A stretch of DNA of 64,000 bases from Pseudomonadota bacterium (GTDB taxonomy: Bacteria > Pseudomonadota > Alphaproteobacteria > Rickettsiales > RGZB01), in assembly GCA_010031735.1 (NCBI GenBank), contig RGZB01000001.1, forward strand, positions 86,411-150,410, in the 5' to 3' direction. Made by a program: the position numbers and the translations under genes. The notes under the pieces are model-generated. The model was given only the letters and a program-made list of their open reading frames with translations. It was not told where the DNA came from and made no database searches. Of the stretch, positions 2,385 to 58,349 are shown piece after piece. Position 1 is the stretch's first letter. Each line of letters opens with the position of its first letter.

Positions 2385-3354
2385 GGGCCGGATTGCCCCT
2401 ACTCTCGAGCGCCCCGGTGCTGGCGTTCAATCCTCATTCCCCCATAAACATCTCCTCGCGATCAGCGATCTCTCGGTGAAAGATATCGAGCAGATTCTTG
2501 CGCTCTCCGAAACCTACGTACAGACCAATCGCTCGAACAATAAGAAGAACCCGATCCTTAAAGGACAGACGCTCATCAATCTATTCTTCGAGAACTCCAC
2601 GCGCACGCGCACCTCGTTCGAACTCGCAGGCAAGCGCATGGGTGTCGATGTCATCAATATGAATGTCGAGAGTTCCTCCACGGCAAAAGGGGAAACATTG
2701 CTCGATACTGCTATGACCCTTAATGCCATGCATCCGGATTTCATCACCGTTCGCCACGCAGAAAGTGGTGCCGTACAACTGCTCTCACAAAAAGTGAAAT
2801 GTGCGGTGATCAACGCGGGCGATGGCTGGCATGAACATCCGACACAAGCATTGCTTGACGCACTCACCATCCAGAAGCGCCGTGGCAAGATCAAAGGCCT
2901 TACGGTCGCGATCTGCGGCGATATTCTGCATAGTCGTGTAGCACGTTCTAATATCGCACTACTCAACAAAATGGGCGCACGTGTGCGTGTGGTTGCACCG
3001 CCGACCTTGATGCCGCTCTATGTCGAAACGCTCGGTGTCGAGCCGTTCTACGAAATGGAGAGAGGCCTGAAGAATGTCGATGTGGTGATGATGCTCCGAC
3101 TTCAAAAGGAGCGTATGACAGGGAATTATATCTCTTCCACCAGCGAATATTTCCACTTCTACGGACTCGATCGCACCAAACTCTCGGTTGCGAAAGACGA
3201 TGTCTTCGTGATGCACCCGGGCCCGATGAACCGTGGTGTAGAGATCGATAGCGAGCTCGCCGATGATATCAACCGCAGCGTCATACTCGACCAGGTCGAG
3301 ATGGGTGTCGCGGTGCGTCAAGCGGTGCTCGAACTCCTCGCCCATAAATCCTAG
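2362..3354 (+). CDS. pyrB: aspartate carbamoyltransferase catalytic subunit
   Basis: [14 protein letters not shown] and HPTQALLD motifs, 330 aa. The ATG overlaps bcp by 23 nt, so the exact start is uncertain. Confidence 0.9.
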
Positions 3355-3374
3355 ATTACTACCTCAGAAACACC

Positions 3375-3408
3375 AAACCCGACCGCCCCTCATGGGACGG
3401 CCGGGTTT
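3375..3408. terminator. bidirectional hairpin terminator shared by pyrB (+) and cassette C1 (-)
   Basis: AAACCCGaCCGcCCC-tcat-GGGaCGGcCGGGTTT. On the minus-sense RNA it is followed by GGUGUUUCUGAGG, the conserved cassette tail. Confidence 0.6.
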
Positions 3409-3448
3409 GAAATGTACCAATTACCCCTACACTAACTAACAGGTCTGC

Positions 3449-3703
3449 TCAGCCCATGTTGGCTTGGGTGAGGGTTTCGACGATGAGCCTCATCATGATG
3501 GCGGGAATCGGGGTCTCGCACTGCACAGCCCCCTGCGTCCCGTCGAACTTGCTGACCGGGAACTGCATCTTCTCGCCCTTCTCCATCACCATCGAGCCGA
3601 CCTTGATGTCTTCGAGCGCTTCGATCTCGACTGACCCGGAAACGAGTTGGATCTTGAACGGGAGTGCGACTTCGACATGGATCACGAACGTTTGCGTAGC
3701 CAC
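3449..3703 (-). CDS. hypothetical small protein, GC3-rich cassette C1 (family A, paralog of 11787-12161)
   Basis: 84 aa, GTG start preceded by GAGGG. Nearly all codons end in G/C. N-terminus ..FVIHVEVALPFKIQLVSGSV.. resembles ..IYTIEVELPFDLTVSRSTV.. of C6. Confidence 0.65.
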   Translation of the reverse strand: MATQTFVIHVEVALPFKIQLVSGSVEIEALEDIKVGSMVMEKGEKMQFPVSKFDGTQGAVQCETPIPAIMMRLIVETLTQANMG

Positions 3704-3741
3704 GACAGTACCCTCGGAGTTTGGTCGTGATGCGCGAAGAC

Positions 3742-3764
3742 GAATCCCGCAGGATTGTTCCTTG
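3742..3764 (-). promoter_or_regulatory. conserved leader RNA hairpin (CAAGGAAC-AAUCC-UGCG-GGAUU) in C1 5' leader
   Basis: Same motif in the C6 leader (12210-12234). Two stem positions differ by compensatory changes (A-U/A-U versus G-C/U-A). Confidence 0.45.
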
Positions 3765-3869
3765 TCTTGGCATCACACTTTCGGATGAGTGAATATCCTT
3801 TTCACTCTACGTGCATAGGCATGCATGGTTGGACGCCATGGATACTTTACGCACGAGTTAGTTGTATCC

Positions 3870-3901
3870 ACTATAGCAGAAACAGGTGAATAACTGGTTA
3901 A
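3870..3901 (-). promoter_or_regulatory. putative promoter of C1: TTAACC-N20-TATAGT
   Basis: Gene-sense TTAACCagttattcacctgtttctgcTATAGT, directly abutting the terminator tail of C2. Confidence 0.45.
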
Positions 3902-3914
3902 TACCCCCCTAAAA

Positions 3915-3958
3915 ACACGAAAACCTTCCACCCCAGCTAGGGTGGAAGGTTCGCGTGT
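3915..3958 (-). terminator. intrinsic terminator of cassette C2 (conserved module)
   Basis: Gene-sense ACACGCGAACCTTCCACCC-tagctg-GGGTGGAAGGTTTTCGTGT + TTTTAGGGG. 19-bp stem with 1 mismatch. The stem is nearly identical to 10068-10115. Confidence 0.75.
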
Positions 3959-3988
3959 GTCCCGGTTTACGCTCCGGAACTAATCTCC

Positions 3989-4336
3989 TCAGTCGTCGAA
4001 CGGATCCGCGATGTCGAGGCCCGCACGTGCGGCCTCGTCCTCGAGCAGCATGTCGCCGTAGGCCTCGCCGTAGGGCTTCGGCTCGACCAGCTTGATCTCC
4101 ATGAACGGCACCATCTTCCAGTCCTGAGACGCGTTCTGCCGCATCATGATGTCGTAGGTCCGGTTGTACTCGATCTGGACGGGCTTGCCCTTGGACAGCT
4201 CGAACGGCGTCGCCTCGAGGTCTTCCAGCAGTGAGATGCGTAATGCGACTTGCACTTCGCCCTGCTTGTTTTCTGCCGTGGGGAACTCGCCGACGCTTGC
4301 AACGAACCTAATCCCGAACAGGGTGAACGAAAACAT
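3989..4336 (-). CDS. hypothetical small protein, GC3-rich cassette C2
   Basis: 115 aa, ATG with GGAG upstream, strongly G/C-ending codons, acidic C-terminus ..LDIADPFDD. Confidence 0.7.
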   Translation of the reverse strand: MFSFTLFGIRFVASVGEFPTAENKQGEVQVALRISLLEDLEATPFELSKGKPVQIEYNRTYDIMMRQNASQDWKMVPFMEIKLVEPKPYGEAYGDMLLEDEAARAGLDIADPFDD

Positions 4337-4504
4337 GACCCGAACTCCGAATGTGGGGATTGCAGACGAATCACACCATCCTTGGGGTGATTCGCACTGC
4401 GGGGTGGGGTACTAAGGAACATCCTTGCACCTTACTTGCTTTCCATGTGTGGGGTGATTTTTAAAACCGCACCGCACATTTCCAGACAAGAACCAACTGT
4501 CCCC

Positions 4505-4536
4505 ATGGTATCAAACCCATGTTAACAAAATCTTAA
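4505..4536 (-). promoter_or_regulatory. putative promoter of C2 with perfect TTAA-N7-TTAAC box
   Basis: Gene-sense TTAAgattttgTTAAC (4536->4521). The first half-site TTAAGA lies N20 from TACCAT. Confidence 0.45.
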
Positions 4537-4573
4537 ATTTGTAATTTTTGATGTAGATTTTTAGTTTATACGA

Positions 4574-4608
4574 GAGCCCTCCCCCACCCGACGGGTGGAG
4601 GAAGGCTC
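4574..4608 (-). terminator. intrinsic terminator of cassette C3
   Basis: Gene-sense GAGCCTTCCTCCACCC-gtcg-GGTGGGGGAGGGCTC followed by TCGTATAAAC. Confidence 0.65.
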
Positions 4609-4651
4609 GCGCTTCTGGCTTTACGTTAGGTGCCAGGAACCTCTATCACAC

Positions 4652-4945
4652 TCAGCTCTGGCTGGCGCGCTCCTGCGCGGCGAACTCCGCCGCGTGCTCG
4701 CTGACGCTCTCGACCTCTTCGTCGGCCGGGAGCGGGAAGGCCGGGGCCCACTCTTCCGGGTCCCCGAGCCAGCTGCCACCGGAGTGGCCGTTGTGCTCGT
4801 GGTCCCAGCGGGCCTTCTGGTTGGTGAACTCCGCCTCGAACTTCGGCAGGTCGGCGATCGGGGCCTCGATCTTGTACGGGGCCTTGGCCAACAGCACCCA
4901 CACGTTGACCTTCTCGCCCTTGACCACGATGTGTTGGATCTTCAT
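4652..4945 (-). CDS. hypothetical small protein, GC3-rich cassette C3
   Basis: 97 aa. By hand count 93 of 97 sense codons end in G/C (Lys AAG, Glu GAG). Two other long ORFs over the same DNA are R/G/P-rich shadow frames. Confidence 0.75.
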   Translation of the reverse strand: MKIQHIVVKGEKVNVWVLLAKAPYKIEAPIADLPKFEAEFTNQKARWDHEHNGHSGGSWLGDPEEWAPAFPLPADEEVESVSEHAAEFAAQERASQS

Positions 4946-5136
4946 CGGAACCTGAGCCTCGAACTGGTGTGATGCGCAGCATGACTCCCCCGTTTTACAA
5001 ACACGGTTGGAGTCTTACTGCACGCGGTAGTCACGAAAGCGCCGTTGCTCCCGTGACGTGTACTTTGCCCGACGATCCTCTGCTGCACCGGTGTTGGTTG
5101 TGGTGCTGGCGGAGAATACTGATGTCGGACTAGATC

Positions 5137-5168
5137 AAACTATCTCTAGGATAGCAAATAATGGTTAA
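5137..5168 (-). promoter_or_regulatory. putative promoter of C3: TTAACCAT..-N20-TAGTTT
   Basis: Gene-sense TTAACCATtatttgctatcctagagaTAGTTT. Exact TTAACCAT 8-mer. Confidence 0.45.
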
Positions 5169-5196
5169 TTTTTTATTAGCGTTGCACACTTTTTAT

Positions 5197-5228
5197 TTAA
5201 CCATTTATTAAGCATTTAGACATATAAT
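5197..5228 (+). promoter_or_regulatory. putative promoter of the 515-aa P-loop gene: TTAACCAT..-N20-TATAAT
   Basis: TTAACCatttattaagcatttagacaTATAAT, then a 25-nt leader with TAAGGA before the ATG at 5254. Divergent from the C3 promoter. Confidence 0.55.
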
Positions 5229-5253
5229 AGCGTATTGATAAGTAAGGATTTTC

Positions 5254-6801
5254 ATGCGCCCGATTTACGAGCCATCAACCGACCTACTCTATTCCGGCCA
5301 TTTTGAGCGGGCGGATCTGGTCGCGCTCGGGAATGCGCTTGGGGTCAGCAACATCAAAGTCATCACCCAGGCAACGCTTGAACCGGACCGGGTATTCTAT
5401 CACGCGTGCATCAATCGGGTGCTCATCAACGTCAAACTGAAGCATCTGGATGAAAGCGAACGTTCGGTTGAAATCGCAGATCTTGCAGAGCGCGTTTACC
5501 GTGACAGGCAGCCGCTTTTTTTCTCTGAATTGTTGAAAAGAGATACCGAGTTAAGAACAAAATTGAATGGCATCGATGTGTTCTGTAATACGCTTGATCA
5601 GATGGCGCCCGACCCATGGGATAAAGCTGCGTTCGACCAACTGTGTGGTGCAGAAAAGGTGCCACAGCGCTGGCAACAGAAAGCCATCGAAACCTACCGC
5701 ACCATCCGTGAACGCATCGCGACAGGAGAATATACTCCGCGGGAGGAAGAAGATGCCCTCTCGCTTACCATCTATTGGGCGCAGCGAAACGTTGAATATA
5801 AACACTACAGGACCATCGCGCGTGAAGCGGTGGAATCTTATCTGGAGAAAACCATCGGTAAAGAAGAGCGTCTTGCCGTACAGCCCGCCAAGGGTCGCAT
5901 CACCACCATGGTCATCGGCGGGTATGGCAGCGGCAAAAGCACCATCTCCAACTGGCTACTCGCACAGATGGGAGATGAAGAGCGTCAGAATACAGGCATC
6001 CATGATGCGGATACCGCGAAGATTGCACTTCTGAGAAAAGCCATCCTGGATAGAATATTGCCTCCTGATCATCCGACCACGGGTTTCGCCGTGCAGAACG
6101 AATCCTCCAATATCAATTACGAAATCACGAGAGAGAGGGCATATCTTGCCGAACATGCTGGCTTTGTGCCCAGGGTCATTATCAATAGCCCGATCTTAGG
6201 TACAACCGAAATGAATGAGGCCCTTGCAGGTGGTGGCAAATTGGTGGGACACCATCTCTTCATGACTATCCCGGAGGCGGTTGGCGAATCCAAACTCCGC
6301 GCAGCACGCATCGGACGTATGCCAGAGGAAGCGGATATCCACTGGTCTACCGTCGCTTCAGCGAAAAGTATCCTAGGCCTTACGGATAGCACGTATCGTG
6401 GCAAAGAGATCACCCTGCATCTCTACAACCGTGAACAGCAGAAAGCACCTAAGCATTATGGCGTGATCGATGTCGCAAATGCCGTCTTTTACATCCATGA
6501 CCTGAATGCTTTAGCCAGCACTGCAGAGATGACGGATGAATCCATCTCGCGTCCGGAGGCACTTCATCGTTTCCTTAAAAAATTCAATGACGCAGGTTTC
6601 ACTATCGCCCTTGCCAAGGCAGAGGAACTCGACAATCCCGTCGCTGTAATTAAGGCGGATAAGAAACTTGAAATCGCGAACCGTGCTGACTTTGTTGCTT
6701 ACGGCGATTTGCGCGCTGAAGTGACTAAGCTTTCTGCCCATACACAATTCAGTGATATCGTGCTGAACCAACCGAAGCCGACAGGCGCGATAAGGATGTA
6801 A
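5254..6801 (+). CDS. hypothetical P-loop NTPase/kinase (zeta-toxin-like Walker A)
   Basis: 515 aa. Walker A MVIGGYGSGKST near residue 220. No other family assignment possible by eye. Confidence 0.7.
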   Translation: MRPIYEPSTDLLYSGHFERADLVALGNALGVSNIKVITQATLEPDRVFYHACINRVLINVKLKHLDESERSVEIADLAERVYRDRQPLFFSELLKRDTELRTKLNGIDVFCNTLDQMAPDPWDKAAFDQLCGAEKVPQRWQQKAIETYRTIRERIATGEYTPREEEDALSLTIYWAQRNVEYKHYRTIAREAVESYLEKTIGKEERLAVQPAKGRITTMVIGGYGSGKSTISNWLLAQMGDEERQNTGIHDADTAKIALLRKAILDRILPPDHPTTGFAVQNESSNINYEITRERAYLAEHAGFVPRVIINSPILGTTEMNEALAGGGKLVGHHLFMTIPEAVGESKLRAARIGRMPEEADIHWSTVASAKSILGLTDSTYRGKEITLHLYNREQQKAPKHYGVIDVANAVFYIHDLNALASTAEMTDESISRPEALHRFLKKFNDAGFTIALAKAEELDNPVAVIKADKKLEIANRADFVAYGDLRAEVTKLSAHTQFSDIVLNQPKPTGAIRM

Positions 6802-6803
6802 GT

Positions 6804-6953
6804 ATGAAAACACCCCCTCTCAATGACCAGCTCATGGATACCAAACTGGATATCAAGGATGATGAGTTTGCCCGCATCGCCGAGAAGACCACTGCTGATA
6901 AGGCGAAAATGGAAGCCTTGATGCGGAAGATATCCGAGCAGGATACCAAGTAA
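6804..6953 (+). CDS. hypothetical 49-aa acidic/coiled-coil-like protein, probably co-transcribed with 5254-6801
   Basis: ATG lies 2 nt after the upstream stop, with AAGGA about 10 nt upstream. MKTPPLNDQLMDTKLDIKDDEFARIAEKTTADKAKMEALMRKISEQDTK. Below the ORF-track length cutoff. Confidence 0.4.
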   Translation: MKTPPLNDQLMDTKLDIKDDEFARIAEKTTADKAKMEALMRKISEQDTK

Positions 6954-7054
6954 GGTGCTCGGTTGGCACAAGCCAGCCAATAATCTCCGCTTTTAGGCAA
7001 AAATACTTGATTTTACGCCCTCTGCTGGTTACACCAAGAGTAACCGAGGGGAAC

Positions 7055-8404
7055 ATGCCACCAAAAGCACCGAAGCAGAACTGGACACTTCCAGACCATA
7101 ATTCCAAGAAAAGCCACAAAGTCGCTTATATCAATGCACGCATCATCGATCCAGAATCCGGCTTCGATAAGAAAGGTGCACTGTTGACTGAAGGCGAGAA
7201 AATCGCTGATTTTGGCCCCGCACTCTTTAAGAACGGCGTTCCGAAAGGCATCGAGGTGGTGGACTGCGAAGGCCATGTGCTATGCCCAGGCTTGGTCGAT
7301 ATCCAGGTGCATTTCCGTGAACCCGGCCAAGAACACAAAGAGACCATCAACACCGGCAGTAAATCCGCCGCGGCGGGCGGTATCACCATGGTGGTCTGCC
7401 AACCCAATACCAAGCCCGTGCTCGATAACGTACCCATCGTCGAGTTCATCAAGAACCGTGCACGTGAAACCTCGTATGTGAATATCCGTGCGTATGGCGC
7501 GATCAGTAAGGACATGAAAGGTGAAACCATCACCGAGATGGGCTTGATGCGCGAATCGGGCGTAGTCGTCGGCTTCACGGACGATGGCCTTCCGGTCATG
7601 AACTCCCTGCTTATGCGGCGCGCACTTGAATTCTCCAAGATGCTCGATGTGCCGATCGCACAGCACGCAGAAGATCTGAACCTTTCCAACAAAGGTTGCA
7701 TCAACGAAGGCAAGATTTCGACCAAGCTTGGCGTGCCGGGTATTCCGAACGCATCCGAAGCCGTGTGTGTGGATCGCGATATCCATCTGGTGGCACTCAC
7801 CGGTGGTGTATATCACCTTCTTCATGCCAGTACGCATGAGGCCGTCGAATCCATCCGCCGTGCGAAGAAGATGGGATTGAACGTCACCGCGGAAGCGGCA
7901 CCGCACCACTTCACTTTAACCGATGAAGCCGTGCTCGATTATAAAACCTTCGCAAAAATGAACCCACCACTCCGTGCCGAAAAAGATCGCCTTGCGATCA
8001 TCGAGGGTTTGAAAGACGGTACCATCGATGCGATCGCGACCGATCACGCGCCGCATGACCAGGAATCGAAACGCGTGCCGCTCACCAGTGCCGCATTCGG
8101 TATCGTGGGTGTCGAGACCATGCTGCCGCTCTCGCTTGCGCTTTATCAAAATAAAACACTCTCACTCCGCGATGTACTTGGCAAGATGACCTGGCGCGCA
8201 GCCGATATCATCCGCGAGAAACGCGGCCGCATCAAGAAAGGCGCTATCGCCGATCTGACACTCATCGATCTGGGGATGGAATGGGTGGTAGAGAATGATA
8301 AACTCTCGAGCAAATCGAAGAACTCTCCGTTCGATGGCCGCAAGGTCAAAGGCCGCGCGATCCGCACCATCGTCAGCGGGCAAACGGTGTATACGCTGGG
8401 TTAA
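7055..8404 (+). CDS. pyrC: dihydroorotase (long, allantoinase-like type)
   Basis: DIQVHFREPG metal-binding motif, ..DHAPH... ATG at 7055 has a GAGGGG SD. The ORF-track TTG at 7007 is less likely. Confidence 0.9.
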   Translation: MPPKAPKQNWTLPDHNSKKSHKVAYINARIIDPESGFDKKGALLTEGEKIADFGPALFKNGVPKGIEVVDCEGHVLCPGLVDIQVHFREPGQEHKETINTGSKSAAAGGITMVVCQPNTKPVLDNVPIVEFIKNRARETSYVNIRAYGAISKDMKGETITEMGLMRESGVVVGFTDDGLPVMNSLLMRRALEFSKMLDVPIAQHAEDLNLSNKGCINEGKISTKLGVPGIPNASEAVCVDRDIHLVALTGGVYHLLHASTHEAVESIRRAKKMGLNVTAEAAPHHFTLTDEAVLDYKTFAKMNPPLRAEKDRLAIIEGLKDGTIDAIATDHAPHDQESKRVPLTSAAFGIVGVETMLPLSLALYQNKTLSLRDVLGKMTWRAADIIREKRGRIKKGAIADLTLIDLGMEWVVENDKLSSKSKNSPFDGRKVKGRAIRTIVSGQTVYTLG

Positions 8405-9517
8405 CTACTCCCCAGGCGTATCAGGGTTATAACCCTTGCTGATGTCGATTTTGTTTACTGCCGCGATTAGTTTTACCACCTGCGAAAAAAATCCATCCCT
8501 CAGAGCTTCACTAAAGCATATATCATTCCATGCAGCTTCCCGGCTTAGTTTTTGTTCCGTTAACGCACGGGCGAGCTCTGGGTTATTGGGGATATACTCA
8601 TCTTCAAACCATTCAACAAGCTTACGAGGAGTTTTATCTCCATCAACCTCAAGTACTTCGAGAATTCCTGACCTAGACGATGCTTCAAGAAAATCTTTCA
8701 ACGTTACATACTTTTTCATAGACCATAGCAGATCTTCACAAATTGAATCCGGTAAATACAGGCTGCTGCCTTCTTCCTGAATACCTGACATAATAGGCTT
8801 TTCTGCTAAAATTTCTCGTAAAGCCCCTGCTGCTTGCTCATTCTCAGGAAGATCGTCTACCCTAGAACGGAAGTCCCACACCAAAAACAAAAAATCATAA
8901 ACACCTTCTATTACCATTTCGGCTGCTTCCTGTGGATTTTGCGGCTCTTTCTCGGCAGCTGCCTTCTTCTGATCAACGGATACATTACCTTCTTTGTATG
9001 ACTCTATGCCCCTCTCACTTTCAGCACTAAACATGTCAAGTGCGGCAGCGAGCCATTCCCGCTTAAACGGCTTTCTCTCGGCAAGAGCGAGAACAAACTC
9101 CATATTATCCTTATGCCTTACCGTGAATTCATCACCTCGTAAAAGACTAATATATAATTCGTTAAGGCTGTGGATGATGATCGCCTGTTGAACCGTTATA
9201 GCATGAACGCTTAAATCAGTATCTTCTTTAGGGGCAAACGCAGCAACTGCGGCATAGATGCGGTCATAGGTGCCTTTGTTAAAATTATCTTCAAATACTC
9301 CTCTATCAATCTCTTCATCCGGCTCCACAAAAGGAGGGATTTTGAGGATCATAATCAAACTACCAGAGTGTATACTCAATTGCCCCATTATATCATCTTC
9401 GATCTGTTCATCGGTCATTTCAGTTTCTGATTTGAGTGCCTCCACTAAAGGCAATTCAAGCAACGCCGCAAGTTGCGCTTCCTTATTAGCCTTATCTCTC
9501 CAATTCGTTCCGCTCAT
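8405..9517 (-). CDS. hypothetical acidic protein (370 aa), lower-GC ORFan
   Basis: Long ORF 8 nt downstream of 9526-10008 on the same strand. Its stop codon abuts the pyrC stop with zero spacer. Confidence 0.65.
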   Translation of the reverse strand: MSGTNWRDKANKEAQLAALLELPLVEALKSETEMTDEQIEDDIMGQLSIHSGSLIMILKIPPFVEPDEEIDRGVFEDNFNKGTYDRIYAAVAAFAPKEDTDLSVHAITVQQAIIIHSLNELYISLLRGDEFTVRHKDNMEFVLALAERKPFKREWLAAALDMFSAESERGIESYKEGNVSVDQKKAAAEKEPQNPQEAAEMVIEGVYDFLFLVWDFRSRVDDLPENEQAAGALREILAEKPIMSGIQEEGSSLYLPDSICEDLLWSMKKYVTLKDFLEASSRSGILEVLEVDGDKTPRKLVEWFEDEYIPNNPELARALTEQKLSREAAWNDICFSEALRDGFFSQVVKLIAAVNKIDISKGYNPDTPGE

Positions 9518-9525
9518 AACGCCTC

Positions 9526-10008
9526 CTATTCCTTACTCTGCGCCACCATCTTCAGGATATATTTTCTAAAATCCGGATCTTCACCGACGAGTAATTTCGG
9601 CAGCGCTTTTCTGAAATCCTCACGCTTCACCCAGAAAATAATGTAGTCTTCCCAGGTGCTCCACAGACGCTTTTGGTGTGGCGGCATCTTCTCTTCATAG
9701 ACAAGGATGTATGCTTGTTCGAATAAGGAAATCAGCAGATCGAAGATGATGAGTTTCCTCTCAATTTGTTCATTCGTCAGCTTTCGCTTCGAACTGTTTT
9801 TTGAAAACAGGCGAAGATCGGAATTCTCAAGAAGGATTTCCTGGAAATCGGAATATTGGTCAGCGAGGCGTTGATACACCTCCTCCTCTTCGTTCTGACG
9901 TTCCTTACGGTAATCGGAAATGAAAATAATGATGGCGAAGGGTAAACCGATCACGGTTACCACATAGCTGAGCAACTCCCACGTCTCTATATCAGTAAAA
10001 TCCATCAT
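9526..10008 (-). CDS. hypothetical membrane-anchored protein (160 aa)
   Basis: N-terminal TM helix LLSYVVTVIGLPFAIIIFI. AT-rich codon usage. The -10-like TAGTAT lies 6 nt from the ATG (leaderless geometry). Confidence 0.65.
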   Translation of the reverse strand: MMDFTDIETWELLSYVVTVIGLPFAIIIFISDYRKERQNEEEEVYQRLADQYSDFQEILLENSDLRLFSKNSSKRKLTNEQIERKLIIFDLLISLFEQAYILVYEEKMPPHQKRLWSTWEDYIIFWVKREDFRKALPKLLVGEDPDFRKYILKMVAQSKE

Positions 10009-10014
10009 GCTCAG

Positions 10015-10046
10015 ATACTAAGTGAAAATGGTGAAGAAAAGGTTAA
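10015..10046 (-). promoter_or_regulatory. putative promoter of 160-aa/370-aa operon: TTAACC-N20-TAGTAT
   Basis: Gene-sense TTAACCttttcttcaccattttcactTAGTATctgagcATG. Aligns with the C1 promoter (shared TTAACC..TTCACC..TTTC). Confidence 0.5.
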
Positions 10047-10067
10047 TGCCCTGCTTTATACCCTAAA

Positions 10068-10115
10068 ACACGAAAACCTTCCACCGCCCCGAAGGGTAGT
10101 GGAAGGTTCGCGTGT
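10068..10115 (-). terminator. intrinsic terminator of cassette C4 (conserved module)
   Basis: Gene-sense ACACGCGAACCTTCCAC-tacccttcggggcg-GTGGAAGGTTTTCGTGT + TTTAGGGTAT. Same stem as 3915-3958 but a different loop. Confidence 0.75.
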
Positions 10116-10144
10116 GCCCTGACTTACGATGCCAGGGCTAGGTA

Positions 10145-10711
10145 CTACGGCTTCGGCAACTCGAAGCCGAACTCGTCGTCCTCATCGGTCGGAGGGGCGG
10201 CGGGCGGCGGCGGCGGCGGCAATTCAAACACCACCTCCTGCTCGCCTGGCCAGTCTTTCAACTCGAACCAGCCCTCGTCGTCCTCCTGCGGCGGCACCGC
10301 CTTTGCCACCTCACCCAACCCGGAAAGCTTACCGAACTCGGTGAGGGCTTTGGAGATGTCCTCGCCCACGGCCGCCAACGCAATGGCAGTTGGCGGCAGC
10401 TCCCAGCAATCGTTGTCATCCACGACGACTGGCCCGGTGACCGGCGGACCGATCACCAAGTGCTCACCCGTGGGCAGCCCGCTCCCGGGGAACACCGAGT
10501 TCAGGATATTCCGGGCGCGGCGCGTAGCGCGCAGGTGACGCACCACCTCCGTCGCCTCGAACTCCTCGCGGGTGAAGGGCGTCAACTTCACGCCGACCGC
10601 CGTGAGGATGGCCTTCGCGGTGGCCCCGTTCATGTCACCGTAGTTTTTCGTGGCGCCGTTCTTGGACGGCTTGGTGAACACGAGCCCGGCGGTCAGGATG
10701 CGCTTCTGCAT
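10145..10711 (-). CDS. hypothetical protein, GC3-rich cassette C4 (family B, paralog of 11059-11487)
   Basis: 188 aa from the ATG at 10711 (GAGGT upstream). The ORF-track start at 10870 runs into the AT-richer leader. KP..K..TKNYG..G motif is shared with C5. Pro/Asp/Glu-rich C-terminus. Confidence 0.65.
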   Translation of the reverse strand: MQKRILTAGLVFTKPSKNGATKNYGDMNGATAKAILTAVGVKLTPFTREEFEATEVVRHLRATRRARNILNSVFPGSGLPTGEHLVIGPPVTGPVVVDDNDCWELPPTAIALAAVGEDISKALTEFGKLSGLGEVAKAVPPQEDDEGWFELKDWPGEQEVVFELPPPPPPAAPPTDEDDEFGFELPKP

Positions 10712-10939
10712 GGGACTAGTACCTCGCCATTTCTCCCATCCCCTGTTTTTAATTGTTAGGGGGACGCGGATAGTGGCACATGTAGGGATTGGTGGAGGAA
10801 ATTTGTGAAACCCTTTCCACTTAGGGTTATGCAAAACTGTAGGCTCGAACCGTAGCAAAACCAAAAACAATGCCCACAGTCAAACACCGAACCAAACTTA
10901 CATAACACCAACTTAACATCCCCAGTATGACTGAACGAT

Positions 10940-10972
10940 ATTACAAAAATATTACCCCTGACCCATGGTTAA
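10940..10972 (-). promoter_or_regulatory. putative promoter of C4: TTAACCAT..-N21-TGTAAT
   Basis: Gene-sense TTAACCATgggtcaggggtaatattttTGTAAT. Exact TTAACCAT 8-mer immediately after the C5 terminator tail. Confidence 0.4.
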
Positions 10973-10988
10973 TAGCGCCTATAAACAC

Positions 10989-11022
10989 GAAACCCCGCCC
11001 CCACTAAAGGGGACAGGGTCTC
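10989..11022 (-). terminator. intrinsic terminator of cassette C5
   Basis: Gene-sense GAGACCCTGTCCCC-tttagt-GGGGGCGGGGTTTC + GTGTTTATAGG (G-U pairs valid only in the minus-sense RNA). Confidence 0.7.
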
Positions 11023-11058
11023 ATGCGCCTGACTCACGCCAGGTCTTTAGGTATCAGG

Positions 11059-11487
11059 TCACTGCGGCGTCTCTACCGGGTAGCCCCCGAAGTTGTCGGT
11101 TTTCGTGACCCCGCCCTTCTCCTTAGGCGGCGCTTCGCCCAGCTCCTTCAGCAGATCGAACGGCTCGTCTTCCGGGGTCAGCTTCACCGCCTCACCCAGC
11201 CCATCGATCTCCGGAACAGCAGGCAGGAACTCCAGCACCGTCGTCCCGCCCTCGTTGCTACCCTGCGGCGCATCGTAGGGCGGCTCCATCGGCCACTCGA
11301 ACACCTCGTCGTTCCAGTCGTGCATGTCGAGCGGCGGGCGCTTGTACGGCCACAGCCCGGCCTTCTTCAGCGCCTGCTGCGCCTTGAACCCGCTCACCGG
11401 CCCGTAGTTCTTCGTCCAGCTCTTGCGCCCCGGCTTGTAGTAGCTGTCCGGGTGCTTCACCGACGTCAACAAAAGAGACGCGCGCAT
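11059..11487 (-). CDS. hypothetical protein, GC3-rich cassette C5 (family B)
   Basis: 142 aa from the ATG at 11487 (MRASLLLTSVKHPDSYYKPGRKSWTKNYGPVSG..). Start chosen by alignment with C4. G/C-ending codons. Confidence 0.65.
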   Translation of the reverse strand: MRASLLLTSVKHPDSYYKPGRKSWTKNYGPVSGFKAQQALKKAGLWPYKRPPLDMHDWNDEVFEWPMEPPYDAPQGSNEGGTTVLEFLPAVPEIDGLGEAVKLTPEDEPFDLLKELGEAPPKEKGGVTKTDNFGGYPVETPQ

Positions 11488-11668
11488 AACCCAATACCTC
11501 ACCACAACTTCCACCATCCTAATTTTTAGGCGGGAGCAGTGGCACACAAGCTGGTGAAGTAATTATTATGACCCCTCTTCACCAAATGGGTCCTTCGACA
11601 ACCGCGATTACGTTAGTACGTAGCCACGGGTTATATTCCATCAAAAGACAGCCAACGAAAGAGCCACC

Positions 11669-11700
11669 AGTATATCGCTGGAATATTGCAGTTTGGTTAC
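11669..11700 (-). promoter_or_regulatory. putative promoter of C5: GTAACC-N20-TATACT
   Basis: Gene-sense GTAACCaaactgcaatattccagcgaTATACT. Confidence 0.4.
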
Positions 11701-11728
11701 GTCTTAAAAAGCTAATAAACAGCTATAA

Positions 11729-11770
11729 AACACAAGACCCCCGCCGCAGATGCGACGAGGGTCTTGTGTT
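11729..11770 (-). terminator. intrinsic terminator of cassette C6
   Basis: Gene-sense AACACAAGACCCTCG-tcgcatctgc-GGCGGGGGTCTTGTGTT + TTATAGC. Confidence 0.7.
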
Positions 11771-11786
11771 GTTAATTGTGCTTACT

Positions 11787-12161
11787 CTACTCGCCAGAGC
11801 CCCCTTGCGCCGGGGGGTCGCCCTTGTAGGCGTCGTCGTGAACGTCCGTCGGCCACGGCGGCATACCGTTCATCCCGCCGCACAGATTCGTCAACACTTT
11901 CGGCATCACGCTCTTCGCCGCCGCCTTCACGATCTTGGCCGCGATGATCGTGCTGCCCGCGCCGTCCCCGACCACTTCGATCGAGATCTTCCCGTCCAGC
12001 ACCTGCGCGAGGCTCACTTCCGCCGACTGACCCTTTTTGAGCGGGTGGCACTTGCCGCCGCCCAGCACGTTCAGAGGCACGTGCGCACAGATGGTGACGG
12101 TGCTGCGCGACACCGTGAGATCGAACGGCAGTTCGACCTCAATCGTGTAAATGGTTCCCAT
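11787..12161 (-). CDS. hypothetical small protein, GC3-rich cassette C6 (family A)
   Basis: 124 aa. Strong SD AGGAGGG 6 nt before the ATG. G/C-ending codons. N-terminus similar to C1. Confidence 0.75.
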   Translation of the reverse strand: MGTIYTIEVELPFDLTVSRSTVTICAHVPLNVLGGGKCHPLKKGQSAEVSLAQVLDGKISIEVVGDGAGSTIIAAKIVKAAAKSVMPKVLTNLCGGMNGMPPWPTDVHDDAYKGDPPAQGGSGE

Positions 12162-12209
12162 ATTCGCTCCCTCCTAAAGAAGCGTAGTGGGTTCCTGATG
12201 ACGACAGCC

Positions 12210-12234
12210 GGTTCCCGCAGGAACGTTCCTTGGC
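12210..12234 (-). promoter_or_regulatory. conserved leader RNA hairpin (CAAGGAAC-GUUCC-UGCG-GGAAC) in C6 5' leader
   Basis: Counterpart of 3742-3764, with compensatory stem changes. Confidence 0.45.
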
Positions 12235-12454
12235 TTTGTCATCGTAATTCGTGGGGTAAGGAATCCATTACCTTACCTGCTGCCTAACACCGATGAGTTA
12301 CATCGGGGTCCAAAACAGCAAGACAAACCATAGGCAGGATAAAGGTAAATTATGACGGAGATATGACGCACCACTGTGAAAAGCCGAAAGTATGGCATAA
12401 AATAGCCATACTTGGCAGTCCATCTTATTGCCATTACCGCTATATTTCAGTTAC

Positions 12455-12487
12455 TAAGTATTACACCATCGTTAACGGGTCGTTAAC
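12455..12487 (-). promoter_or_regulatory. putative promoter of C6 with perfect TTAA-N7-TTAAC box
   Basis: GTTAACgggtcGTTAAC reads as TTAA-N7-TTAAC on both strands (12472-12487). The gene-sense upstream TTAACG lies N20 from TACTTA. Confidence 0.45.
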
Positions 12488-12497
12488 TCATCTGTAA

Positions 12498-12517
12498 CAT
12501 GTTCCACGTGGAACATG
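12498..12517. repeat. perfect 20-bp palindrome CATGTTCCACGTGGAACATG
   Basis: Read directly. Lies between the C7 terminator and the C6 TTAAC box. Confidence 0.9.
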
Positions 12518-12521
12518 GCAG

Positions 12522-12537
12522 GATACGCTAGCGTATC
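12522..12537. repeat. perfect 16-bp palindrome GATACGCTAGCGTATC
   Basis: Read directly. 4 nt from the 20-bp palindrome, with imperfect GGCA/TGCC extension. Confidence 0.9.
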
Positions 12538-12569
12538 TGCCGTAATAGACATTCTATTCGCCCCAAAAA

Positions 12570-12609
12570 GCAAAAGGGAGAGAGGTTTGCAGTCCCTCTC
12601 TCCCTTTGC
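12570..12609 (-). terminator. intrinsic terminator of cassette C7
   Basis: Gene-sense GCAAAGGGAGAGAGG-gactgcaaa-CCTCTCTCCCTTTTGC + TTTTTGGGG. Confidence 0.7.
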
Positions 12610-12654
12610 CGCCCCGTATAATAGATAATAAAATGGGGCTTCATTCTTCCATGA

Positions 12655-12954
12655 TCAGCCGACGGTGTCCCCGTCGTTCGGCCACTGGTAGTCGGCGTTC
12701 CCGCTCACCCAGTCGATCACCGCCGACGCGCCCACGCCCATGTCCTCGTTCTCGAACTCCTTGTCCTCGGCCATCGCCCGCGCGGCCTCGTGCCCGATGG
12801 CCGCGTACTTGGCCTGCAGGGCGAGGTCGGCACCGTCCACGGCCTTGTCGTCCGGGTCGTCCTTGATCTTGGTCACGGTCTTGGTGGCCGGCTGGACCTC
12901 GAAGAAATCGTCCGCGCCGCCGTCGTCGTCGTTCCGCCGATTCCGAGCGCTCAT
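12655..12954 (-). CDS. hypothetical acidic small protein, GC3-rich cassette C7
   Basis: 99 aa from the ATG at 12954 (GGAG 9 nt upstream). The ORF-track TTG at 12990 is also possible. G/C-ending codons. Confidence 0.6.
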   Translation of the reverse strand: MSARNRRNDDDGGADDFFEVQPATKTVTKIKDDPDDKAVDGADLALQAKYAAIGHEAARAMAEDKEFENEDMGVGASAVIDWVSGNADYQWPNDGDTVG

Positions 12955-13138
12955 GGCTGCTTTCTCCGCTTTCGGTAATCCCTTACGCAACTTGGGATGT
13001 CAACCGAAGCACGTGTGTGGTGAGGGTCTAGAACTCGATCTTCGAACTCTGCTATCTACCCTTCTCACCTTAGGGTCATGTATCAGTCCTCGGTTGCGAC
13101 ACGAGAGACTGGTTATATGCACCAAGAAATACCCCTTT

Positions 13139-13170
13139 AATATGCCCGAATACTGTTACAAATATGTTAA
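13139..13170 (-). promoter_or_regulatory. putative promoter of C7: TTAACA-N20-CATATT
   Basis: Gene-sense TTAAcatatttGTAACagtattcgggCATATT (TTAA-N7-gTAAC, one mismatch to the full box). Confidence 0.4.
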
Positions 13171-13272
13171 AATCAGTCGATTAGGGGCTAAAATACTGAA
13201 AGTTGCGTTAATCACTGGAAATCCACCAAAAATTTGCTATGGTACGCACGACTCACGATACAGGTTTATGCC

Positions 13273-14607
13273 ATGAAAAAGATGATTCTGCCCATTTTAG
13301 CGGTTTTTAGCCTCTCCGCCTCCACTTCCGCCTACGCCATCACCATGGAAGAAGCCATGGTTAAAGCCTATACGCAGAACCCCTCGCTGGAAGCGGATCG
13401 TGCTGCGAAAGAGGCTACCGACGAATTACTCCCACAGGCTTATTCTGGTTTCCTTCCGACCGTCACCGCAAGTTATAGCCGCGGTAAGGTAGACCAGACC
13501 ATCGGTCGCCGTGAAAGCGATAATATCCAGAAGACACGCTCACTCAGTATCCGTCAGCCTATCTTCAATGGTGGCGAAACCATCTTCCAAAGCCAACGTG
13601 CAGAAAACCTCATCTCCGCGGCAAAGAACGACCTCATCGATTCCGAACAAACGACGCTTGGTGGTGCAGTACAAGTATATATGGATGTCGTACGTACCGA
13701 TAAGGTTCTCGACCTCAGCAAGAATAATGAACAAGTGTTAAGCGAGCAGCTGCAAGCGACGCAAGAACGTTTTAAGCTCGGTGAAACGACACGTACCGAC
13801 GTGGCGCAAGCAGAAGCACGTCTGGAGCGTGCCAAATCAGACCGCATCCGTGCAGAAGGCGATGTGATCGCTGCGCACGCGAGCTATAAGCGTGTCGTAG
13901 GTGAAGAGCCGGTAGGCCTTTTCATGCCGACAAGCTTGCCGCAAGTACCGACGAGACTGGACGATGTCGTGAAACGGGCGATGGAAAACAACCCACGCTT
14001 GAAACGCGCCGCGTTCACCAAAGATGCCGCTGAAAACGATGTGTGGATTACGAAGGCCCGCCTGCTCCCCGATGCGGAGGTGGAAGGCCGCATGGATCGT
14101 GAAGATGGCTTAAACAGCTTGTTTGGTAGCAACCAGGACACCGATTCCCTGCTCTTGCACGTAACGGTTCCACTCTATCAATCCGGTGAAGAATATTCCC
14201 GCATCCGCCAGGCGAAACGCACGAAAGAGCGCCGCAACATGGAAGAAGCGGATACAAATAACATCACGCTTGAGGGTGCTACGAAAGCGTGGAAGGATCT
14301 GGAAACCGCGCGTTCTACGATCGCGTCCAGTGCGGCTGCCGTGAAAGCAGCAAAAATCGCGCTTGATGGTGTTCGCCAGGAAGCCGATGTGGGTTCCCGC
14401 ACGATTCTGGATATCCTCGATGCCGAACAAGAACTCTTCACTGCCAACGTCAACCTGGTGACAGCACAACGTAACGAAGTGATCGCAATCTACAACGTAA
14501 AATCGATCATGGGTGAGCTGACTGCTGATAATCTGAACCTGCCAGGCCCGCACTATGACATGGATTCTTACCGTGACAAAGTGAAGTACCGGATGATCGG
14601 TTTTTAA
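13273..14607 (+). CDS. tolC: TolC-family outer membrane efflux/type I secretion protein
   Basis: Signal peptide MKKMILPILAVFSLSASTSAYA. Two TolC-type repeats. Start taken at the ATG with the signal peptide. Confidence 0.85.
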   Translation: MKKMILPILAVFSLSASTSAYAITMEEAMVKAYTQNPSLEADRAAKEATDELLPQAYSGFLPTVTASYSRGKVDQTIGRRESDNIQKTRSLSIRQPIFNGGETIFQSQRAENLISAAKNDLIDSEQTTLGGAVQVYMDVVRTDKVLDLSKNNEQVLSEQLQATQERFKLGETTRTDVAQAEARLERAKSDRIRAEGDVIAAHASYKRVVGEEPVGLFMPTSLPQVPTRLDDVVKRAMENNPRLKRAAFTKDAAENDVWITKARLLPDAEVEGRMDREDGLNSLFGSNQDTDSLLLHVTVPLYQSGEEYSRIRQAKRTKERRNMEEADTNNITLEGATKAWKDLETARSTIASSAAAVKAAKIALDGVRQEADVGSRTILDILDAEQELFTANVNLVTAQRNEVIAIYNVKSIMGELTADNLNLPGPHYDMDSYRDKVKYRMIGF

Positions 14608-20389: not shown

Positions 20390-20674
20390 ATTCCCCCATC
20401 AAATTGGTAAAACCAACCCAGAGCTTACGATACAATAAACTTGTTAAAACTACGTTAAACAATGAAAAGTTCAGGCTCTTTATACATAACTGCTTTGCTA
20501 AAAAAAGGAAAATTAACGAATTCGTAAGCCTAAAAATGGCCTTGTAACACAATCGGCTAAACTGTTGCATTTATGCAACAATCATTTTGGAGGGTTTTGG
20601 GGTTTACTGTTGCAGATATGGGGCTGATTCGGTAGGTTTACCCCCTTCCTTAAGCGCTAATACGAGTTTTACCC

Positions 20675-22394: not shown

Positions 22395-22520
22395 TTACTT
22401 CTTCTTGTGGCCCGCGAACTGGTTGGCCGGGATCTTGTGCTGCCGCCGCGCGCGCTTGAGGGCCTTGCTGTTGCCCTTGGCCTTGGCGGACTCCGTCTTG
22501 CCGTGCTGGATCTTGCGCAT
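22395..22520 (-). CDS. hypothetical 41-aa highly basic peptide, GC3-rich cassette C8
   Basis: MRKIQHGKTESAKAKGNSKALKRARRQHKIPANQFAGHKKK. Every Lys is AAG and most codons end in G/C. Below the ORF-track cutoff. The opposite-strand ORF 22407-22601 looks like a shadow frame. Confidence 0.45.
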   Translation of the reverse strand: MRKIQHGKTESAKAKGNSKALKRARRQHKIPANQFAGHKKK

Positions 22521-41775: not shown

Positions 41776-41825
41776 TATAGGCTTGGTGCTATATTCCGCT
41801 TCCGTACGAAAGGTGTAGTTTGCCT

Positions 41826-42701
41826 ATGGCTACCAAGACTTTACCAGTCCTCACCGATGCCGGTCTCACGCACTATCTGCAAGAGATCAATAAGTTCCCT
41901 ATGCTGGAAGAGCAGGAAGAATTCATGCTCGCCAAAGCATGGCGCGACCACGGTGATACACAAGCCGCTGAGAAGCTGGTCACCAGCCATTTGCGCCTGG
42001 TTGCTAAACTCGCCATGGGCTTCCGTGGTTATGGCTTGCCGCTCGTTGAGTTGATTTCCGAGGGCAATATCGGCCTTATGCATGCCGTCAAGAAGTTCGA
42101 TCCGGATAAAGGTTTCCGCCTTTCCACCTATGCGATGTGGTGGATCAAAGCGGCGATTCAGGAATACGTGCTCCGTTCATGGTCCATGGTAAAAATGGGC
42201 ACGACTGCCGCGCAGAAGAAATTGTTCTTCAACCTCCGCCGCGTGAAAAACCGTATCGCCAACCATCACGGCGATCTGACACCGGATGAGGTGAAGCAAG
42301 TGGCGAAAGAACTGAGCGTACCGGAAGAAGATGTGGTGGATATGGATCGACGGATGTTCGCGACGGACCAATCGCTCAACAACACGTTCGGTGATGAAGA
42401 TGGCGAGGGTGTAGAGTTCATCGATAATCTTGCGGATGAGCGTGATGACCAGGAAGTCGTCCTCGGCAATATGGAAGATTACGAACTGAAACGCCGCATG
42501 CTCGCGAGTGCCATCAAAGTGCTGAACGAGCGTGAGATGGATATCTTATTCGCGCGTCAAATGCAGGAAGTGCCGGCAACGCTAGAAGACCTCAGTCAGA
42601 AATACGATATCTCGCGTGAGCGCGTGCGCCAGATCGAAACCCGCGCGATCGAGAAGCTGCAAGCCGCAGTGAAGAACCCGAAGCTCCTTAACGCACACTG
42701 A
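41826..42701 (+). CDS. rpoH: RNA polymerase sigma-32 factor
   Basis: RpoB-box-like AQKKLFFNLRRVK (the RpoH box). Sigma-70 regions 2 and 4. Confidence 0.9.
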   Translation: MATKTLPVLTDAGLTHYLQEINKFPMLEEQEEFMLAKAWRDHGDTQAAEKLVTSHLRLVAKLAMGFRGYGLPLVELISEGNIGLMHAVKKFDPDKGFRLSTYAMWWIKAAIQEYVLRSWSMVKMGTTAAQKKLFFNLRRVKNRIANHHGDLTPDEVKQVAKELSVPEEDVVDMDRRMFATDQSLNNTFGDEDGEGVEFIDNLADERDDQEVVLGNMEDYELKRRMLASAIKVLNEREMDILFARQMQEVPATLEDLSQKYDISRERVRQIETRAIEKLQAAVKNPKLLNAH

Positions 42702-44418: not shown

Positions 44419-44450
44419 TTAACGAGCCATTAACCATTCTTCTTTATACT
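44419..44450 (+). promoter_or_regulatory. putative promoter of the 424-aa gene with perfect TTAA-N7-TTAAC(CAT) box
   Basis: TTAAcgagccaTTAACCAT. The upstream TTAACG lies N20 from TATACT. The -10 ends 9 nt before the ATG at 44460 (near-leaderless). Confidence 0.5.
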
Positions 44451-44459
44451 TGAGAGGAT

Positions 44460-46528: not shown

Positions 46529-46540
46529 AGTGATTTTATA

Positions 46541-47575: not shown

Positions 47576-47584
47576 ATTGTGCCC

Positions 47585-48561: not shown

Positions 48562-48594
48562 ATAGTACTGCGCAATCCTTAAATTTTCGTTAAC
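48562..48594 (-). promoter_or_regulatory. putative promoter of the 305/344/J-domain operon with TTAA-N7-TTAAC box
   Basis: The plus strand reads TTAAattttcgTTAAC (48579-48594). Gene-sense TTAACG-N20-TACTAT. Confidence 0.45.
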
Positions 48595-50495: not shown

Positions 50496-50519
50496 CTTAT
50501 TTTCTGAGCTTAAAAAGCC

Positions 50520-50555: not shown

Positions 50556-50563
50556 AAGACTTT

Positions 50564-58292: not shown

Positions 58293-58349
58293 CAAAGATT
58301 AGCCCAAGAAAAGAAGACTTAACCGGATTGGGCCCCGGTTAAGCACATG

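Follow-up and report, generated by a model that had tools for sequence, protein, structure and literature searches.

Putative CtrA-type promoters ahead of orphan genes and small-gene cassettes in a deep-branching alphaproteobacterium

How do genes without recognisable relatives come to be expressed in a bacterial chromosome, and could a battery of them be switched on together? The question is raised by 64,000 nucleotides (nt) of contig RGZB01000001.1 (GenBank assembly GCA_010031735.1, positions 86,411 to 150,410), the whole of which we call the window, where tandem mini-gene cassettes and larger orphan genes lie between housekeeping genes. An original prediction made from the letters of this stretch had proposed that 13 of its transcription units share a promoter built on TTAA-N7-TTAAC or the 8-mer TTAACCAT, both read as the recognition motif of the cell-cycle response regulator CtrA. 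We find that 14 sites, those 13 and one more, align as TTAAC-N6-TTAAC-N10-TAnnnT when read towards the downstream gene: nine lie ahead of cassettes, four ahead of larger orphan units (a gene for a protein of 515 amino acids (aa), a 160+370-aa operon, a 424-aa gene, and a 305+344+265-aa operon), and one ahead of the core operon mlaA-mlaC. We conclude that the CtrA reading is well supported on sequence and geometry, although the regulator itself is putative here, and that the window adds to an established promoter class an example whose regulon is unusual.

The host is alphaproteobacterial because its AddB scores 805 bits against the alphaproteobacterial equivalog model (cut-off 486) and the best matches of its UvrA among species-representative genomes are alphaproteobacterial metagenome-assembled genomes, at 63-68% identity. 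An AddB query of species-representative genomes returned no close relative; judged by these protein comparisons, the host is a deep-branching, uncultured alphaproteobacterium without a known close relative. Genes were mapped as long open reading frames (ORFs), the cassette frames being corrected by GC content at the third codon position (GC3), and on this map 11% of the window, or 7.1 kb, is intergenic.

Box and -10 hexamer in fixed register

The aligned sites are given below with box, spacer, predicted -10 hexamer, leave-one-out matrix score and, for some, rank under a matrix built from Caulobacter sites (described in the next section).

3870 to 3901, minus strand: promoter of cassette C1; TTAACCAGTTATTCAC, 10 nt, TATAGT; leave-one-out 22.4, Caulobacter-matrix rank 25.
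4505 to 4536, minus strand: promoter of cassette C2; TTAAGATTTTGTTAAC, 10 nt, TACCAT; leave-one-out 19.1.
5137 to 5168, minus strand: promoter of cassette C3, divergent from the 515-aa promoter and of the half-site class; TTAACCAT as left half, degenerate right half TTGCT, -10 TAGTTT; leave-one-out 9.4, rank 330 with the Caulobacter full-site matrix.
5197 to 5228, plus strand: promoter of the 515-aa orphan gene; box TTAACCATTTATTAAG, 10 nt, -10 TATAAT; leave-one-out 28.7, Caulobacter-matrix rank 12.
10015 to 10046, minus strand: promoter of the 160-aa/370-aa orphan operon; TTAACCTTTTCTTCAC, 10 nt, TAGTAT; leave-one-out 23.0, Caulobacter-matrix rank 22.
10940 to 10972, minus strand: upstream region of cassette C4; TTAACCAT half-site, no right half, -10 out of register; leave-one-out -4.4.
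11669 to 11700, minus strand: promoter of cassette C5, half-site class; GTAACC as left half, degenerate right half, -10 TATACT at the 21-nt gap; leave-one-out 8.8.
12455 to 12486, minus strand: promoter of cassette C6; TTAACGACCCGTTAAC, 10 nt, TACTTA; leave-one-out 14.4.
13139 to 13170, minus strand: promoter of cassette C7; TTAACATATTTGTAAC, 10 nt, CATATT; leave-one-out 16.9.
20427 to 20458, minus strand: promoter of the core operon mlaA-mlaC; TTAACGTAGTTTTAAC, 10 nt, TATCGT; leave-one-out 23.9.
44419 to 44450, plus strand: promoter of the 424-aa orphan gene; TTAACGAGCCATTAAC, 10 nt, TATACT; leave-one-out 20.9.
48562 to 48593, minus strand: promoter of the 305-aa/344-aa/265-aa orphan operon; TTAACGAAAATTTAAG, 10 nt, TACTAT; leave-one-out 19.0.
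62726 to 62757, plus strand: promoter of cassette C11; TTAACATATATTTAAC, 10 nt, TGTTAT; leave-one-out 30.9; alternative register with CATAGT at 62764-62769.
63456 to 63487, plus strand: promoter of cassette C12; TTCACATATATTTAAC, 10 nt, TGTGAT; alternative register from 63467 with TATAAT at 63493-63498.

Conservation in this alignment is confined to both half-sites and three letters of the hexamer (T, A, and the final T); the spacers show no relationship, the C11 and C12 promoters apart, which are homologous to each other (87% over 39 nt). Non-conserved spacers therefore speak for selection on contact positions, and not for recent duplication, in all but that one pair. Seven of the boxes are perfect, four depart from the consensus at one or two positions of the left or the right half, and C3, C4, and C5 have a half-site only. 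Leave-one-out scores range from 14 to 31 for C1, C2, C6, C7, C11, C12, the 515-, 160-, 424-, and 305-aa promoters, and mlaA, but are low for C3 and C5 and negative for C4; thus the geometry proposed for 13 units holds strongly in ten of them, while C3 and C5 are half-site promoters and C4, off-geometry, is on its sequence a doubtful member of the class.

The distance between box and hexamer is equally constrained. Of the 40 intergenic occurrences of [TG]TAAC, 10 have a TAnnnT exactly 21 nt away, and no other gap accounts for more than 4, the secondary peak at gap 10 corresponding to the right half-site; in the alignment, TAnnnT (the predicted -10) lies exactly 10 nt past the right half-site in 13 of the 14 sites. 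Although the hexamers of the original prediction had been picked by eye, a fixed -10 distance is borne out; its value, given there as 20 or 21 nt, is 21 nt from the left half-site, equivalent to 10 nt from the right, and the C11 and C12 promoters, there anchored on the right half-site and a more distal -10, have TGTTAT and TGTGAT in the common register. All 14 sites face a gene start 0-290 nt downstream. The 515-aa gene has a predicted transcription start at about 5235 and its ATG at 5254, for a predicted leader of about 19 nt; the predicted leaders of mlaA and the 305-aa operon are about 31 and 53 nt, and those of the cassettes 100-290 nt; the mRNA of the 160-aa gene (10006-10015), with its ATG 6 nt past the -10, is predicted to be leaderless, and that of the 424-aa gene (44445-44462), with its ATG 9 nt past the -10, nearly so.

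No -35 hexamer is present in the aligned promoters. We considered whether a sigma factor might read the two half-sites unaided and rejected this, since the spacing known for the sigma-70 family accommodates neither the 21 nt that separate the left TTAAC from the -10, too great a distance for a -35/-10 pair, nor the 10 nt from the right TTAAC, which are too few.

Could an AT-rich intergenic background, in which TTAA is common (46 single sites in the 7.1 kb), have produced such a pattern by chance? TTAA-N7-TTAAC occurs 7 times on the two strands of the window against 0.28 expected from dinucleotide-preserving shuffles, none of 100 shuffles reaching 7, and for TTAACCAT the count is 6 where 1.4 would be expected. 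Intergenic DNA contains every one of the 7 distinct TTAA-N7-TTAA sites; the spacing spectrum of TTAA-Nx-TTAA has 7 sites at N7 and no more than 2 at any other spacer from 0 to 40; and an unbiased scan of intergenic DNA for all dyads of two 4-mers and a spacer puts TTAA-N7-TTAA first (7 vs about 0.3 expected), followed by its own shifted versions. As a baseline, 1.47 Mb around uvrA in 80 other alphaproteobacteria contains 13 TTAA-N7-TTAA sites and no peak at N7. Since only N7 and the 21-nt gap are enriched, the spacing spectrum, dyad scan, and -10 gap test together refute chance, to which we give practically no probability.

The 16-mers and 8-mers listed in the original prediction are all confirmed, but the list was incomplete: it missed the perfect box at 20443-20458 (minus strand) ahead of mlaA-mlaC, and a further TTAACCAT at 13357-13364 (minus strand) inside tolC. 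The listed TTAACCAT at 57842-57849 (minus strand), 27 nt before the addB start codon, is without promoter geometry.

The association with accessory genes is strong. By our own classification of transcription units, the box architecture is found in 12 of 16 accessory but only 1 of 27 core units (Fisher p = 1.4e-6), so that the expected enrichment at accessory over core promoters is seen within the window. The broader claim that the whole accessory set is wired to one regulator goes too far: the box is absent from cassette C9 (50564-50872), a mini-cassette at 22395-22520, and a 532-aa orphan gene, is at best weak at C8, and is present at mlaA-mlaC, a core operon. The contrast drawn with canonical core promoters also needs qualification, for argD does have a perfect TTGACA, but its spacing is 15 nt to TACAAT (18 nt to AATAAT), and carD looks like an extended -10 promoter.

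Upstream of C8 there is only a weak TTCAC-N21-TAATAT at 57864, and a TTAAC (57846-57850) homologous to that of C11 stands without a -10 in register, so that by its sequence the C8 box looks decayed. A 48-nt block including ATCATTATATATCAATAT, 75% identical between its two copies, precedes the C8 and C11 promoter regions (57808-57855 vs 62688-62735), and the GTTAAC of the C8-side copy is the source of the minus-strand TTAACCAT beside addB.

Position of the box relative to known CtrA promoters

With the hexamer taken to lie at -12 to -7, the 5′ T of the box, 26 nt before it, falls at -38, the right TTAA at -27 to -24, and the A of the hexamer at -11, and the box as a whole covers about -38 to -23. 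Global 5′ rapid amplification of cDNA ends in Caulobacter crescentus places the 5′ base of the full CtrA motif near -35 at activated promoters, at -39 in the activated ctrA P2, and at -14 where CtrA represses; 183 start sites bear the motif, and of 42 start sites examined from dataset S5, 31 have the 5′ base of the motif at one of the positions -38, -39, and -40 (PMC4287350). In the fla2 flagellar promoters of Rhodobacter sphaeroides, 23-24 nt separate the end of the CtrA box from the mapped start site; the right element occupies -27/-28, the A at -11 is invariant, and the authors note the agreement with Caulobacter (PMC6180460). Measured from the predicted -10, the predicted position of the box in the window is an exact match to that in mapped CtrA-activated promoters.

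The same comparison unites the two motifs of the original prediction. In dataset S5, TTAACCAT appears as a left half paired with a weak right half, as in hfaA (TTAACCATTTTTTCG), fliX (TTAACCATACTTCAA), ctrA (TTAACCAGTCTTAAA), and also flbT (PMC4287350); the C1, C3, and 160-aa promoters resemble these sites, and the two motifs therefore make up one positional class.

As an independent measure, a matrix was trained on the informative columns of 31 Caulobacter sites only and run over the 128,000 positions of the window. The 7 perfect sites come out on top, C1, the 160-aa promoter, C12, and C7 are all placed 32nd or better, and C4, C3, and C5 rank 92, 330, and 901; 29 of the top 35 hits are intergenic. 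The identification of the motif as the CtrA consensus overlapping the -35 region thus agrees with mapped positions in both Caulobacter and R. sphaeroides as well as with the Caulobacter-only matrix.

The position of the box also bears on the sign of regulation. That CtrA or a CtrA-like protein binds these sites in order to repress or silence foreign genes is conceivable, as foreign AT-rich promoters are common silencing targets and CtrA is known to repress as well as activate, but strikes us as very improbable. Caulobacter sites at which CtrA represses overlap the -10, with the 5′ base near -14, whereas sites at -38 to -40 activate (PMC4287350); and promoters that lack a -35 hexamer should be weak without an activator.

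The promoters have close parallels among described systems. Full-motif Caulobacter promoters (ctrA P2, ccrM, fliQ, divK, hfaA) are like those of the window in i) half-site sequence; ii) 11-bp phasing; iii) use of the TTAACCAT variant with a weak right half; iv) position relative to the -10; and v) the lack of a -35 hexamer. They differ in that the -10 of the window is of the E. coli type (TAnnnT), the genome is AT-richer than that of Caulobacter, and binding and start sites in the window are predicted from sequence. The genes served differ too: Caulobacter targets are flagellar, chemotaxis, pilus, division, and regulatory genes, whereas 13 of the 14 window sites stand ahead of genes without homologues. 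Density differs as well, for the Caulobacter genome of about 4 Mb has about one motif-bearing start site per 22 kb, and the window, with 14 sites in 64 kb, is roughly five times denser. R. sphaeroides fla2 offers the same distance from box end to start site, the same invariant A, and divergent promoter pairs within a short intergenic region, comparable to 5137-5228 in the window; there, however, some sites have a 6-bp spacing, whereas the window is strictly N7, and the cargo is different. Among obligate intracellular alphaproteobacteria, the Ehrlichia chaffeensis CtrA regulon (also predicted in Wolbachia) has boxes ahead of non-motility genes tied to developmental stage, although its targets are conserved genes (gshA/B, GST, pst, tat) and not orphan mini-gene arrays. 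The window thus extends an established promoter class to a new organism, at an unusual density and with orphan genes as nearly its only cargo.

A Cori-type replication origin, which would call for several boxes in a single non-coding stretch under 1 kb where GC skew switches, was rejected: the boxes are spread over 60 kb, each with a -10 and a gene start, and the cumulative GC skew declines near-steadily from -0.08 to about -2.5 over the window, interrupted by small local reversals but by no sustained switch. GANTC depletion (154 vs a shuffle expectation of 312 ± 14) is unusable as a sign of CcrM because the controls TCNGA (169 vs 304) and CANTG (175 vs 265) are depleted too; GATC is enriched (458 vs 357 expected).

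Islands, orphan genes, and cassettes

In a relative represented by a Joint Genome Institute metagenome contig (L082, 1-7221; GC 36%), the genes glnE, bcp, pyrB, pyrC, and tolC are contiguous; pyrB and pyrC abut, pyrC and tolC are 90 nt apart, PyrC is 70% identical to that of the window, and the contig has no perfect box. The window has these five genes too, but with 3.65 kb between pyrB and pyrC (3355-7006) and 4.8 kb between pyrC and tolC (8405-13233), two islands that contain C1-C3, the 515-aa gene, the 370/160-aa operon, and C4-C7. Because the relative keeps pyrB-pyrC-tolC contiguous, the islands are, by this comparison of gene order, insertions. The AT-rich/GC-rich junctions are not an assembly chimera, because an independent European Nucleotide Archive contig (L001, 1073 bp) reproduces 3595-4667 at 99.9% identity. 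Since the insertion separates pyrC in the window from the gene that ancestrally preceded it, a new promoter for pyrC must lie in 6802-7050.

GC3 is 0.73-0.95 in cassette ORFs, 0.39-0.57 in the large orphan genes, and about 0.62 in core genes, and the same box precedes both of the distinct accessory classes; therefore two compositional classes of foreign genes share one promoter type. This, together with the perfect box of the core operon mlaA-mlaC, points to a regulator belonging to the host and makes it unlikely that the sites serve some other DNA-binding protein, such as a different OmpR/PhoB-type response regulator or one borne by an island, whose likeness to CtrA would be convergent. Such a protein would account for the lack of ctrA in the window and for regulated genes unlike the usual CtrA regulon, and foreign islands could bring a regulator of their own located elsewhere; but half-site, 11-bp phasing, TTAACCAT variant, and -38 position would all have to coincide with experimentally defined CtrA sites, and no island protein has a Pfam DNA-binding domain.

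The accessory proteins searched for homologues are orphans; database entries for proteins of the window carry the locus tags EB060_00440, _00450, _00665, and _00670. Homology searches with C2, the 515-aa protein, and a profile of the 305/344-aa paralogues return only the queries themselves, and a HMMER search of 1.84 billion representative proteins with C5 returns only itself and one weak repeat match. Pfam and PHROGs searches of the cassette and orphan proteins found a DnaJ domain in the 265-aa protein, a DUF6249 match below threshold, and nothing else; the C2 protein has no relatives among viral contigs, and its single-sequence structure prediction is unusable, with a mean pLDDT (predicted local distance difference test) of 45.

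Some of these proteins invite separate comment. In the operon at 45731-48502 (minus strand), the 305- and 344-aa orphans are paralogous (27% identity, E = 2.5e-20) and are followed by the 265-aa protein, whose only recognisable feature is the DnaJ (J) domain. The 515-aa protein (5254-6801), which has no Pfam match and no homologues, has by eye a Walker-A-like motif, GGYGSGKST, within TMVIGGYGSGKSTISNWLL. Residues 41-79 of C5 (11059-11484) match a 3087-aa repeat protein (P0004) in five stretches (E = 4.7e-6), which suggests that they constitute a short proline- and aromatic-rich repeat module.

The cassettes themselves are modular. Eleven lie in the window, at 3365-5130, 10050-13132, 50510-51040, 57903-58395, and 62764-63985, and the main arrays are these:

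3365 to 5130, minus strand: cassette array C1-C3; ORFs 3449-3703, 3989-4336, and 4652-4945, with structured leaders of 160-185 nt, GC3 of 0.76-0.89, and terminator modules.
10050 to 13132, minus strand: cassette array C4-C7; ORFs 10145-10711, 11059-11484, 11787-12161, and 12655-12954, of the same modular build as C1-C3.
62764 to 63985, plus strand: cassettes C11 (ORF 62979-63374, GC3 0.95) and C12 (ORF 63593-63886).

A typical cassette is composed of a promoter of its own, a long leader, a single small ORF preceded by a good Shine-Dalgarno sequence, and a 3′ module. The leaders are 80-290 nt long and about 47% GC, and fold more stably than dinucleotide shuffles (z -1.0 to -6.3, below -1.7 in 9 of 11), most markedly in C11 (62764-62978, z -6.3), C3 (4946-5130, z -4.7), and C9 (50873-51040, z -3.0); an Rfam search of the whole window found nothing at gathering thresholds, and in 3300-13300 only a chance-level microRNA match with E up to 1. 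The 3′ module of C2, C4, C5, and C8 consists of a small hairpin, the sequence CAC(A/G)(C/T)G(C/A)(G/A)A(A/C)CC, a GC-rich terminator hairpin, and TTT(C)GTGTTTTTAGGG; C11 and C12 have another version common to both, and hairpin lengths vary between cassettes. A viral origin of the cassettes was considered and rejected; a search with the module pattern gave 49 matches, mostly single and at chance level.

The cassette ORFs are mostly unrelated, with mosaic links between some: an N-terminal motif links C4 to C5 (E = 1e-5), a C-terminal module ending in FGGY links C5 to C11 (E = 1e-4), and C1 and C6 have both an N-terminal strand motif and a leader hairpin in common. The C1 and C6 leaders (3715-3768 and 12183-12236, minus strand) are 70% identical over a block of about 54 nt, which lies some 40-60 nt ahead of the start codon; its hairpin has a conserved UGCG loop and a 5-bp stem with two compensatory double changes (AAUCC/GGAUU vs GUUCC/GGAAC).

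Such modularity raises the question of whether the TTAAC elements are primarily recombination or insertion sites at cassette junctions, their promoter-like appearance being secondary. Within the arrays the box does begin 5-30 nt past the previous terminator module (...GTGTTTTTAGGG), that is, at a unit boundary, and homologous 3′ modules next to unrelated ORFs suggest modular exchange. Yet the same phased architecture stands ahead of genes that are not cassettes (mlaA and the 515-, 160-, 424-, and 305-aa genes), a recombination site has no need of a phased -10, C8, C9, and the mini-cassette near 22.4 kb lack the box, the short GC-rich hairpins with T-runs are terminator-like and not attC-like, and no integrase, transposase, or recombinase gene is present in the window. 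We consider this explanation quite improbable; a junction role additional to the promoter role is conceivable, given the boxes at unit boundaries in the arrays.

The arrays do recall integron cassettes, including attC clusters without an integrase, in being tandem, co-oriented units of 0.6-0.9 kb between core genes, whose single small ORFs are unrelated and whose 3′ elements are structured and conserved. They differ in that each unit has its own promoter and long leader, where integron cassettes have promoterless ORFs, and in that attC sites are 57-141 nt, arranged as R''-L''...L'-R' with a GTTRRRY core and usually with intI close by, whereas the 3′ elements of the window are GC-rich hairpins of about 30 nt followed by T-runs, with no integrase nearby. 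We have rejected the integron reading, since the 3′ elements are intrinsic terminators, the units have their own promoters, and no integrase domain is encoded in the window.

Limited searches found no described system that matches the cassette build, which is the part of these observations most likely to be new. It is possible, though not likely, that the cassettes are an undescribed modular unit, composed of box promoter, highly structured leader of 100-290 nt, one small GC3-rich orphan ORF, and double-hairpin terminator ending in ...GTGTTTTTAGGG, that has time and again been inserted and reshuffled between housekeeping genes and plugged as a set into a cell-cycle or developmental regulator.

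Elsewhere in the window, the polynucleotide phosphorylase gene is split by a frameshift into overlapping ORFs in different frames (29717-30964 and 30931-31899), reflecting either a pseudogene or a sequencing or assembly error.

Proposed activation by CtrA

We think it probable that the promoters are activator-dependent and of the CtrA type, with CtrA both binding and activating. In such a scheme, i) the direct repeat TTAAC-N6-TTAAC, with half-sites one helical turn apart, would take the place of the -35 hexamer; ii) a dimer of phosphorylated CtrA would bind the repeat, centred near -31; iii) CtrA would recruit the housekeeping holoenzyme, which alone would recognise only the -10, as in class-II-type activation; and iv) the downstream genes would be switched on together whenever CtrA is active. 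Promoters with two half-sites (C2, C6, C7, C11, C12, the 515-, 424-, and 305-aa promoters, and mlaA) would be expected to bind more tightly than the half-site promoters of C3 and C5.

Several observations weigh against activation by CtrA. Not every promoter conforms, C4 being off-geometry and C3 and C5 having half-sites; the -10 hexamers are weak in several units (TGTTAT, TGTGAT, CATATT, TACCAT), and C11 and C12 each allow two registers. There are no orthologous promoters for phylogenetic footprinting, as the regulated genes are without homologues, and the conserved genes classically controlled by CtrA (flagellar, chemotaxis, and pilus genes, ccrM, divK), which could have provided a positive control, are absent from the window. 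Nor are ctrA, cckA, or chpT, or any response regulator gene, found within the 64 kb, where the only regulator seen is an RpoH-like sigma factor (41820-42701). CtrA is, to our knowledge, near-universal in Alphaproteobacteria, and on that basis its presence in this host is presumed.

We wish to emphasise that the promoter class is a textbook one, and that the finding extends known biology and overturns nothing. Should CtrA indeed drive these promoters, 13 or more transcription units in 64 kb, amounting to a large battery of orphan genes, would be wired to a master regulator of cell cycle or development, and a conserved regulator would clearly have captured recently acquired genes of two compositional origins; and the box with its phased -10 would offer a handle, readable from sequence, for predicting co-expressed unknown genes in an organism that cannot be cultured. 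If the cassettes are indeed the modular unit proposed above, they would represent a lineage-specific acquisition of small proteins co-expressed at one stage of the life cycle, for example a dispersal or infective stage.

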